DNA of 64,000 nt from Hydrolagus affinis (Eukaryota). Shown here piece by piece: positions 53,014-55,979 of this stretch. Every line of letters begins with the position of its first letter. Position 1 is the stretch's first letter. The stretch spans positions 1-64,000 of the forward strand of contig JAAILG010000838.1 of assembly GCA_012026655.1 (NCBI GenBank), written 5' to 3'. Both the position numbers and the translations under genes were made by a program. The notes under the pieces are model-generated. The model did no database searches. It worked only from the letters and a program-made list of their open reading frames with translations, and was not told the origin of the DNA.

Positions 53014-54816
53014 CTGCGTCCTGTGCTCTCCGACCGCAAACTGCAGAACAGCAAAGCCGCTGTTGTGGCCGTCCTCAACTCGCTCCACGGTGCTCGAGTC
53101 AATCTTCAGGTCACTGCTGATCTCAGCGCTCTGTATGAAGTCCTCGGTCTTTAAGTCTTCGACTCGCTTGAGCTCTCCGTTAGCGAGCTGGATGATCGAG
53201 CCTTTCATGAAGTAGGGGGGCAGTTGGTTGGGTGTGGTCATGGGGGAGCTGACTGACTGCACCGGGGGCAGGTGCACCTGGGCCTGCACGATGGTGGTTT
53301 GGTAGGCCGGCTGAGGGACAAGTGATTCAGGGTTATAGTTCTCGCTCTTGGAGGTGGCCGTGCGGACGAATGGGTGAGGCACTGCAGCAAACTGAGGAGA
53401 CGTGGTCACAATCGTAGATGTTACTCCTGATCCATCGGCCGCCGAGCCACACACAGGAATGAGGGTGCCTGGGATCACGAGGTGCTGTTGCATGTTCCCG
53501 TGGTAACTAAGTGCTTGTTGCTGGCTGCTGATGTAGCCGATGAGAGGCTGCTGTGGAGCGGGATACACGGCACTGGAAGGTAGTCCTATTGGGAGATGCT
53601 GTGTGGGGTTATGTGTGGTCTGAATGACAGTATGTGGGGGAAAGGCTGCCTTGCCGTGATTTAAGTTAGTCTTATCGTACACTGCCAAAGGAGAGCTTCC
53701 CCTGTCTATGGCCTGTTGGACCTCCAGATCTGTAGTAGGCGTATGACTGTTCGGTATAATCATTACTGAGGTCCTGCGACCTAAAGTTTCGTGTGCATTA
53801 TAATCAGCAGTACTTGGGTGGACAACCACATGGGCTCCATGCCTGATTTCATAGTGCCGAGCCATGGGCTTGCTTCCTGCCTTTTCCATGTTCATTTCTG
53901 AGCTGGGGGAGATAGCATACCTCCTGTTTTTTTCCATTTCGCCATTCAACACTTCCCTTCTTGAGACAATGTGCTTGGTGTCTTCAGCCTTCCTGGCAGA
54001 CTCCCTCGATGAAACGTGGTACCCGGGATTGGCATACTGAAGGACTACCTGCGATGGGGCACTGACTGTGAGGCTGTGCGGAATCAGTGTAGGGTGAGAG
54101 TGCAGAGGGACTGCTGCAGGGGAAAGACATCGGGTCAAGTTTGGAGAGGAGCTTGGAATCTGCATGTACTGGCTTTGCAATGAAGGAGAAGATCCTGTGA
54201 TCATTCCAGACGGTCTGACCATATGTTGCTCAACCTTATGCTGGGATGGGCCACCCATGTTGGTAAGGATGGTAGAGTAGGGTTCCAGGTGGGAATACTG
54301 AGATGGAGTGGCAGAAGAGGAAGAGGTCGTCGGGGAAATCAAAGGGGATGGGATGAAGGCAGCAGGTCCCGGATATGGTCCACCGTAATGTGACCCAACA
54401 AACTGGAAAGCAGTGGGCTGCAGCGGGGCATACTGTACAGGAGACACGGAGGTTCCTGGCTGTGATAGTGCAGAGGACGAATAGACAGCACGAAGGTGCG
54501 TTACCCCCGGAGTCGCTCGAGTGTTGCCAGGTGACGAATAGTCCACAGGTGACGCAAGTGGTTTATAGAGTGCTACTGCTTGTGGTAAGCAAGTCTCCAT
54601 CGCCATTTCTCCTATTGTCTTGGCATGTCCGTACCTCATGCCGACACTGCTTTGGCTGCTCGCTACGTTGGCAAGCCATGCTAGGTTTTCACTGCGACTG
54701 CTGTCACTCACAGGAGCTGCTGCCACCACCTTCTCCTCCAACGGCAGACAGCTGACAGGAAACTCTCGCTTTTTGGGTGGTAAGCATTCGTTGCTGCGCT
54801 CCTGGTTCGATTTCAT
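53014..54816 (-). CDS. ATXN1: Ataxin-1, first coding exon (601 aa, MKSNQERSNECLPPKKRE... through the N-terminal part of the AXH domain)
   Basis: ORF 53008-54816 with the diagnostic N-terminus and the AXH start LPPYFMKGSIIQLANGELKRVEDLKTEDF. Donor CAG|GTatga at 53013. Confidence 0.97.
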
Positions 54817-54982
54817 TTTTATAGACTCACTTAGTGTCTGTTATGCTTGGATTCTAGTTTGAGAAATTGGATGTCACATTTGTTTTCTGGCAGCTCGACC
54901 CAAAATGATCCAAGAACTACATGAGGCATCATTTCCTCTAGCCAGAATTTTTTTTTATATACACACACAGCTGCTCTGGAAT
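54817..54982 (-). other. ATXN1: 5'UTR portion of the ATXN1 start-codon exon, containing a 33-codon uORF (54831-54932)
   Basis: Polypyrimidine tract ctctcttttcatttCAG followed by a second CAG 7 nt downstream, so the exon starts at 54982 or 54975. Confidence 0.7.
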
Positions 54983-55979
54983 CTGAAATGAAAAGAGAGT
55001 TTCAAAAGTTTCACACTTAACAAACAAGAGGCATTTGCCAACTCAAGCAACGGTAAATTTACAAACTGATGAAAATTGACAGTTGTGCTAACATAACTGT
55101 GTATGTGGAACCCCATTTATGCTTACTGCCTGCTCTGAAAAGTTTATTTTAAATCCAGGGCTTTGGAAATATAGTCAGTGCAGATTCACTTCCCCACCCC
55201 ATTCCCTCAATACTAACATGCCAGGCGGGTGAAGTACAAATAGGGTACCACATACAGAGCAATCCTCAGTAATAGTGAGAGCAAGCTGCACTTCAGCAGA
55301 TTCACAGTACGCCTTTTCATTGATTGGTATCACTGAGATCTACCTCATCTCATTCATGAAAACCTGGCTGATTTAAATATTGGCTGCGGAGGAAGAGGGA
55401 GGATGGGAGAACCGCACAGGCAAGATGCTGTACAACTCTTTACAACTGGTTGCAACCACCCCGAAACCCAGGACAAGGCTGATGCCTTTTCATATTAGCA
55501 CCTAAAATTCCAACGTTATTTGCCATTTCAACCTGGAATCGCAAGTAGACTAAATGGGTGCATACCATCACAGTATGTATTACTGCTTATATAGAAAATC
55601 AATTTTCAAGCTTAATTCTGATCAACATGAAAGACACACGATTCACACGTTAAAAACTCAAACACATTATTATATAAAAACATAAAGACAGCATTGTCAC
55701 GAGTGTGCTCTAGATTATTCCTAAGAAGGAAGGGTCCCTGCCCTCAGTGATCAGTCTTCCCTTCCAAGTCCTGCTCATGAGCCAGGCTGGTTGTGCTGTC
55801 ATCAGCAGTGCCTGGAGTATTGCGGACCTGCTTGGCTCAGGAATTGGACGATTGACACCGCCACAGAGGTTTGGCTCAATTCTGACATTTGGTTGCCAGA
55901 CATGGCAAGCACCTCAGAATCATTCCTCCTTTTGTGAAAAGTGTCTTCTAATACTGGCGTAGCACCCACAGCAGTTGGT

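Follow-up and report, generated by a model that had tools for sequence, protein, structure and literature searches.

The ATXN1 locus and its upstream open reading frame

The window analysed here is a 64,000-nt stretch of a Hydrolagus affinis contig, and its minus strand carries a gene for ataxin-1. The encoded protein is 94% identical to Callorhinchus milii ataxin-1a, 75–78% identical to the best-matching shark and ray proteins, and approximately 50–56% identical to those of lobe-finned fish and tetrapods. In a phylogenetic tree it groups with Callorhinchus ataxin-1a (99/99), far apart from the paralogue encoded in the same genome, and Pfam recognises ATXN-1_C and AXH domains in it. These affinities identify the source of the window as a chimaera-type cartilaginous fish. 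The first coding exon contributes 601 codons (53014..54816, minus strand), which cover ATXN-1_C and the first half of AXH, and is followed by a GT donor after 53014. The last coding exon, placed by tblastn at 44453..44983 (minus strand), corresponds to Callorhinchus residues 604–780 and is 97% identical to them. Judged by identity, phylogeny and domain content, the host gene is ATXN1 and not ATXN1L. In the intron behind the first coding exon, at about 52480–52400 on the minus strand, there is also a tRNA-like stretch that, by eye, probably belongs to a tRNA-derived SINE.

Ahead of the main start codon, the first coding exon includes 166 nt of 5' UTR (54817..54982, minus strand), made up of 50 nt, an upstream open reading frame (uORF) and a 14-nt gap. 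The uORF (54932..54831, minus strand) is ATG-initiated, runs for 33 codons and ends in TAA. It opens with two tandem ATGs, the first with G and the second with A at position -3; the main ATXN1 ATG (54816) likewise has A at -3. The two starts are offset by 116 nt (2 modulo 3), so the uORF and ATXN1 lie in different frames. Two further out-of-frame ATGs occur within the uORF, at 54922 and 54879, each with a stop codon directly after it. The 166-nt UTR part is not predicted to be more structured than its shuffles (z 0.31). An earlier, sequence-only reading had proposed a 33-aa peptide at 54831..54932, with its stop 14 nt short of the ATXN1 ATG and lying within the exon that carries the ATXN1 start. 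The sequence gives exactly this peptide and spacing, and the RNA data described below place both starts in one exon. An ATG-initiated uORF close to 29 codons in length, here 33, is thus found in the 5' UTR of the spliced first coding exon.

The ATXN1L-type paralogue of this genome (contig G000:C26420, locus L004, 6050-4305, minus strand) has the same large first coding exon, with the same end position within AXH. Its presumed exonic UTR, bounded by an acceptor inferred from sequence, contains no ATG before the start codon, and therefore the uORF is not common to the ATXN1L-type gene in this exon.

Transcription of the leader

Evidence for transcription comes from RNA of very close relatives. 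In run X10, a stranded poly(A) library from relative C, binned read depth across the uORF is 9–14, based on a sample of 58 reads that are all at least 95% alike and come from about 27% of the run. These reads share a single orientation, which in most stranded libraries corresponds to minus-strand RNA. Depth falls to zero beyond 54993, and nine reads leave the window sequence at 54983. Contigs from runs X3 and X5 (relative A; their RNA status is a guess) leave it at the same position and continue into nearly identical loose sequence. The exit point shared by the three runs coincides with an AG dinucleotide (54983..54984, minus strand) next to a visible pyrimidine tract, which marks the splice acceptor of the first coding exon. 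The uORF is present in spliced message, at least in very close relatives of H. affinis.

The loose sequence beyond the acceptor occurs only once in the genome, on contig G000:C79732 (locus L005), where it is followed by a GT donor. A preceding untranslated exon of approximately 111 nt can be placed there (849-739, minus strand) from the loose ends and the donor, with its own acceptor inferred. This exon holds two further short uORFs of 9 and 4 codons. Joining it to window position 54982 creates a start codon at the junction, with a stop directly after it, and the same junction is seen in the loose ends of relatives A and C. The leader is AUG-rich here, as has been described for human ATXN1.

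Chance occurrence and variation among close relatives

Dinucleotide shuffling of the 166-nt UTR part produced a complete ATG-initiated frame of at least 33 aa in 262 of 3000 cases, and such a frame was present in 49 of 744 tiles of 166 nt taken elsewhere in the window. Since frames of this length arise by chance in 7–9% of such stretches, the presence of the uORF alone is weak evidence. The case for it rests on conservation, and the orthologous uORF described in the next section is stronger evidence.

Close relatives offer little resolution. The uORF shows zero differences in relatives B and C, and a single one over 102 nt in relative A, the non-synonymous change V5A. Over 378 nt of the neighbouring coding sequence, relative A has 17 listed differences, 10 of them synonymous, with changes near the contig end left unlisted; the difference rates of uORF and coding sequence give a Fisher p of 0.14. 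No synonymous change was seen in the uORF of relative A against 2.2 expected (P ~0.11, from few sequences and one change). These data suggest slow evolution of the uORF, short of significance, and carry no coding signature at this distance.

An orthologous uORF in a distant vertebrate

Metagenome contigs were scanned with the first 50 residues of ATXN1 as query, and at least one of the 594 candidate stretches listed was confirmed as an ATXN1 locus (L006). The best BLAST matches of its protein are ATXN1 proteins (28–35% identity), while the paralogue gives only a 20-residue match. In the tree it falls with the bony vertebrates (92/99) on a long branch, and our guess is that its source is a ray-finned fish.

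The L006 exon opens like that of the chimaera, with AG and then ATTCC. After 39 nt of exon (50 nt in the chimaera) comes an ATG that begins a uORF of 29 codons. Over the first 24 nt of the two uORFs, 19 positions are identical, a level reached by one of the 127,952 24-mers of the window, namely the uORF start itself. In the alignment of the two peptides there is a single gap, of four codons, and 7 of the 29 aligned residues agree. This alignment score is above that of 19,829 shuffles and is matched or beaten by the other 171 of 20,000, and the in-frame pairing is the best of the nine possible frame pairs. A caution against a strong reading comes from 236 unrelated window ORFs of 25–40 aa, two of which score at least as well against the L006 peptide. 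One aspartate and one phenylalanine each keep their distance from the stop in both peptides. With its 29 codons and the 19 matching positions in the first 24 nt, a homologous uORF is present in this distant bony-vertebrate ATXN1 locus.

The similarity is concentrated at the start of the frame. With the first eight residues taken away, the chimaera and L006 peptides show no significant similarity, the score being reached in 5480 of 20,000 shuffles, and an unanchored DNA alignment of the two sequences missed the homology. Some coding constraint seems to act on the peptide, most of all at its start. The L006 uORF stops 139 nt before the main ATG, compared with 14 nt in the chimaera, and its frame offset differs as well. 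A stop position conserved relative to ATXN1, as the sequence-only reading had proposed, is not supported by these data. The same reading had put forward a human peptide whose 29 residues equal the published length and which, in an ungapped comparison by eye, agrees with the L006 peptide at 9 of 29 positions; by this agreement the proposed string is plausible.

Within the L006 uORF, an out-of-frame ATG begins a 10-nt sequence shared with the main ATXN1 start (782-791 and 1001-1010). It opens an 8-codon ORF, and the matching ATG in the window meets a stop directly; the resemblance is probably due to chance.

Searches for relatives of the peptide

Database searches returned no credible relative of the chimaera peptide. 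A word search of protein databases found none among entries of 27–88 aa and one candidate, not significant, among those of 89–2000 aa. No Pfam family was found for either the chimaera or the L006 peptide, and the Atlas gave no usable match for the chimaera peptide. The N-terminal extensions of 120 ATXN1 homologues do not contain it, and in prokaryote genome contigs none of 600 candidate stretches was confirmed. HMMER, run against 1.84 billion representatives, gave a single match, P0122 (E 2e-10); this plant hypothetical protein was rejected because weak matches of 21.6 bits each sum over approximately 12 tandem repeats.

The published ATXN1 uORF and Alt-ATXN1

A uORF in the ATXN1 leader is already in print. 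According to the legend of Fig. 4B in Mudge et al. (bioRxiv 10.1101/2021.06.10.447896), GENCODE annotates as protein-coding a Ribo-seq-supported uORF of 29 aa in the human ATXN1 5' UTR, with a strong PhyloCSF signal for coding evolution across vertebrates; chicken, Xenopus and zebrafish are shown. Four other ORFs of the ATXN1 leader are described there as having no such support, three of them in six 'additional' UTR exons, and from the wording of the legend the 29-aa ORF apparently lies in the first coding exon. Like the chimaera frame, the GENCODE element starts at an ATG, spans some 30 codons of the ATXN1 5' UTR and seems to belong to the first coding exon. Both it and the L006 uORF have 29 codons, compared with 33 in the chimaera, and cartilaginous fish are outside the species named in the legend. 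On the strength of position, length and the L006 comparison, the chimaera uORF is very probably the orthologue of the GENCODE element.

The suspicion of the sequence-only reading that the uORF might already be catalogued was therefore correct, and most of its novelty is gone. Its claim of peptide-level conservation held in part: a vertebrate-wide uORF with coding-type constraint finds backing in the GENCODE legend and in L006, but the central K-C motif of the chimaera peptide is missing from the L006 peptide.

The uORF must be kept apart from Alt-ATXN1, a 185-aa product of a nested frame that starts 30 nt inside the coding sequence (Bergeron et al. 2013, as described in PMC10193022 and PMC9712206). 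Each adds a further reading frame to the ATXN1 message, but Alt-ATXN1 is nested in the coding sequence whereas the chimaera uORF lies upstream of it, and so they are separate elements. At the position given for human Alt-ATXN1 in PMC10193022, roughly 30 nt past the ATXN1 ATG, the AUG is kept in both the chimaera locus and L006. The frame closes after 27 codons in the chimaera (54704..54787, minus strand) and after 4 codons in L006 (position 1030); the long nested ORF is therefore not conserved in these two loci. Identity of the uORF with Alt-ATXN1 was ruled out on its upstream position and on the 27 codons, rather than 185, that follow the nested AUG. A preprint on TOGA2 (10.64898/2026.06.30.735536) likewise annotates the 29-aa uORF, and the legend of its Supplementary Figure 32 labels that uORF Alt-ATXN1 and credits it with the function of the nested frame. 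The two ORFs seem to have been confused there, and the uORF peptide may therefore wrongly pass as characterised.

Judged by titles and the opening lines of abstracts, no paper testing the function of the ATXN1 uORF peptide was found in a mostly open-access literature. In file 2 of the catalogue of PMC10032668, the two 'ATXN1' matches listed, out of eight, both refer to ATXN1L.

Other work bears on the leader as a whole. The human ATXN1 5' UTR was reported to lower reporter output approximately 10-fold (PMC7462065, PMC7462066), and upstream AUGs have been named as contributors to this repression (Manek et al., cited in PMC7462065/PMC7462066). In zebrafish, atxn1b is reported to rise on loss of Upf1 or of the EJC (PMC7310861). 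A functional miR760 site is reported 42 nt ahead of the human ATXN1 AUG, where a 3-nt deletion was used to test it (PMC7462065/PMC7462066); in the Outlook article the last predicted uORF lies upstream of this site. Should the 29-aa uORF end near the AUG, the site may fall in its last codons (the equivalent of window 54831-54870), in which case the deletion would also alter the peptide. The miR760 seed match is absent from the UTR parts of the chimaera and L006.

Possible roles of the uORF

We favour a reading in which the chimaera ATXN1 leader carries an orthologue of the GENCODE uORF that more probably than not throttles ataxin-1 synthesis in cis. Part of the scanning ribosomes would initiate at the tandem AUGs, both with a purine at -3, and make a short peptide. 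Reinitiation is disfavoured by short gaps and by longer uORFs. Termination would leave 14 nt to the ATXN1 AUG, probably not enough for efficient reinitiation, and ataxin-1 would then come mainly from ribosomes leaking past the uORF. This mechanism is put forward with the same moderate confidence as the reading itself. The concentration of conservation near the AUG fits a cis throttle, but the exact geometry invoked for it is not conserved in L006, since both the gap and the frame offset differ there. Termination at the uORF stop would also take place approximately 1.8 kb before the last exon junction, possibly exposing the message to nonsense-mediated decay, a link that we consider possible but on the whole unlikely.

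The strong PhyloCSF signal reported by GENCODE suits a plain throttle no better than it suits a peptide with a function of its own. The uORF might mainly encode a small, stable, trans-acting protein, with repression as a side effect and ATXN1 bicistronic in the manner of MIEF1/MIURF and SLC35A4/STREMI. Besides the protein-coding call and the vertebrate-wide PhyloCSF signal, this would account for a length held at 29–33 codons, differing by whole codons, while the spacing from the main ATG differs by a factor of ten, and for the D and F kept equidistant from the stop. Precedents are known: HRURF, MIURF in MIEF1 and STREMI in SLC35A4 are, like the ATXN1 element, conserved small ORFs ahead of a main coding sequence on one mRNA. 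Protein functions are described for MIURF and STREMI, and pathogenic variants are known in HRURF; for the ATXN1 uORF peptide, no functional test was found in the sources consulted. Against a trans-acting product, the chimaera and L006 peptides agree at only 7 of 29 aligned residues, with no significant similarity past codon 8, and the peptide has neither a Pfam family nor an Atlas match nor a credible relative in protein databases. ATXN1 is also not named in the main text of a bicistronic-transcript screen or of a 2026 microprotein paper (PMC13303939, PMC13275300), and the GENCODE authors themselves take PhyloCSF as a sign of protein evolution and not of function (10.1101/2021.06.10.447896). 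We therefore hold a mainly trans-acting product, the main rival to the throttle, to be rather unlikely, while noting that the two roles can coexist, by analogy with STREMI, reported as both a protein and a cis regulator.

Coding constraint would also be explained, with no need for a free peptide, if the nascent chain stalled its own ribosome in a sequence-dependent and possibly signal-responsive way and so blocked scanning to ATXN1. Conserved-peptide uORFs of this stalling kind are found in AMD1 and CPA1, and a ribosome halted at the chimaera stop, 14 nt short of the main ATG, would sit over that ATG. Arrest peptides usually keep the residues near their C-terminus. Here the shared part is the first eight codons and the C-terminal end is not significantly alike between the chimaera and L006, where, moreover, 139 nt separate the stop from the ATG, and stalling is accordingly given a low probability. 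Lower still is that of a conserved RNA or splicing element close to where the exon begins, with an AUG in it by chance and the open frame incidental. Such an element would suit the concentration of conservation with L006 in 24 nt, the 7–9% of random stretches with ORFs this long and the lack of synonymous changes in relative A (not significant). It sits poorly with a frame that is open for 29–33 codons in both lineages, with the published Ribo-seq and PhyloCSF support for the human element and with a UTR fold that is not unusual. Both are less probable than the cis throttle.

Significance

The ATXN1 uORF is already known; since 2021 the literature has held it up as a model case of a conserved, protein-coding uORF. 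What is new is only its extension to cartilaginous fish, where it is intact in a holocephalan and transcribed in very close relatives, together with its lack in the corresponding presumed exon of the ATXN1L-type paralogue of this genome. Being found in a holocephalan, the uORF dates to the ancestor of jawed vertebrates. The chimaera copy, with 33 instead of 29 codons and its 14-nt gap, is a divergent natural variant that would be useful for swap experiments.

A larger claim, that the uORF makes a functional microprotein of jawed-vertebrate age acting in trans on ataxin-1 biology, with the SCA1 gene bicistronic throughout its history, is in our view unlikely. If it were true, some effects ascribed to the 'non-coding' ATXN1 5' UTR, perhaps including that of the miR760 site-2 deletion, would be peptide changes. 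ATXN1 is dosage-sensitive (PMC7462065, PMC7462066), and therefore an element that would set its translation matters.
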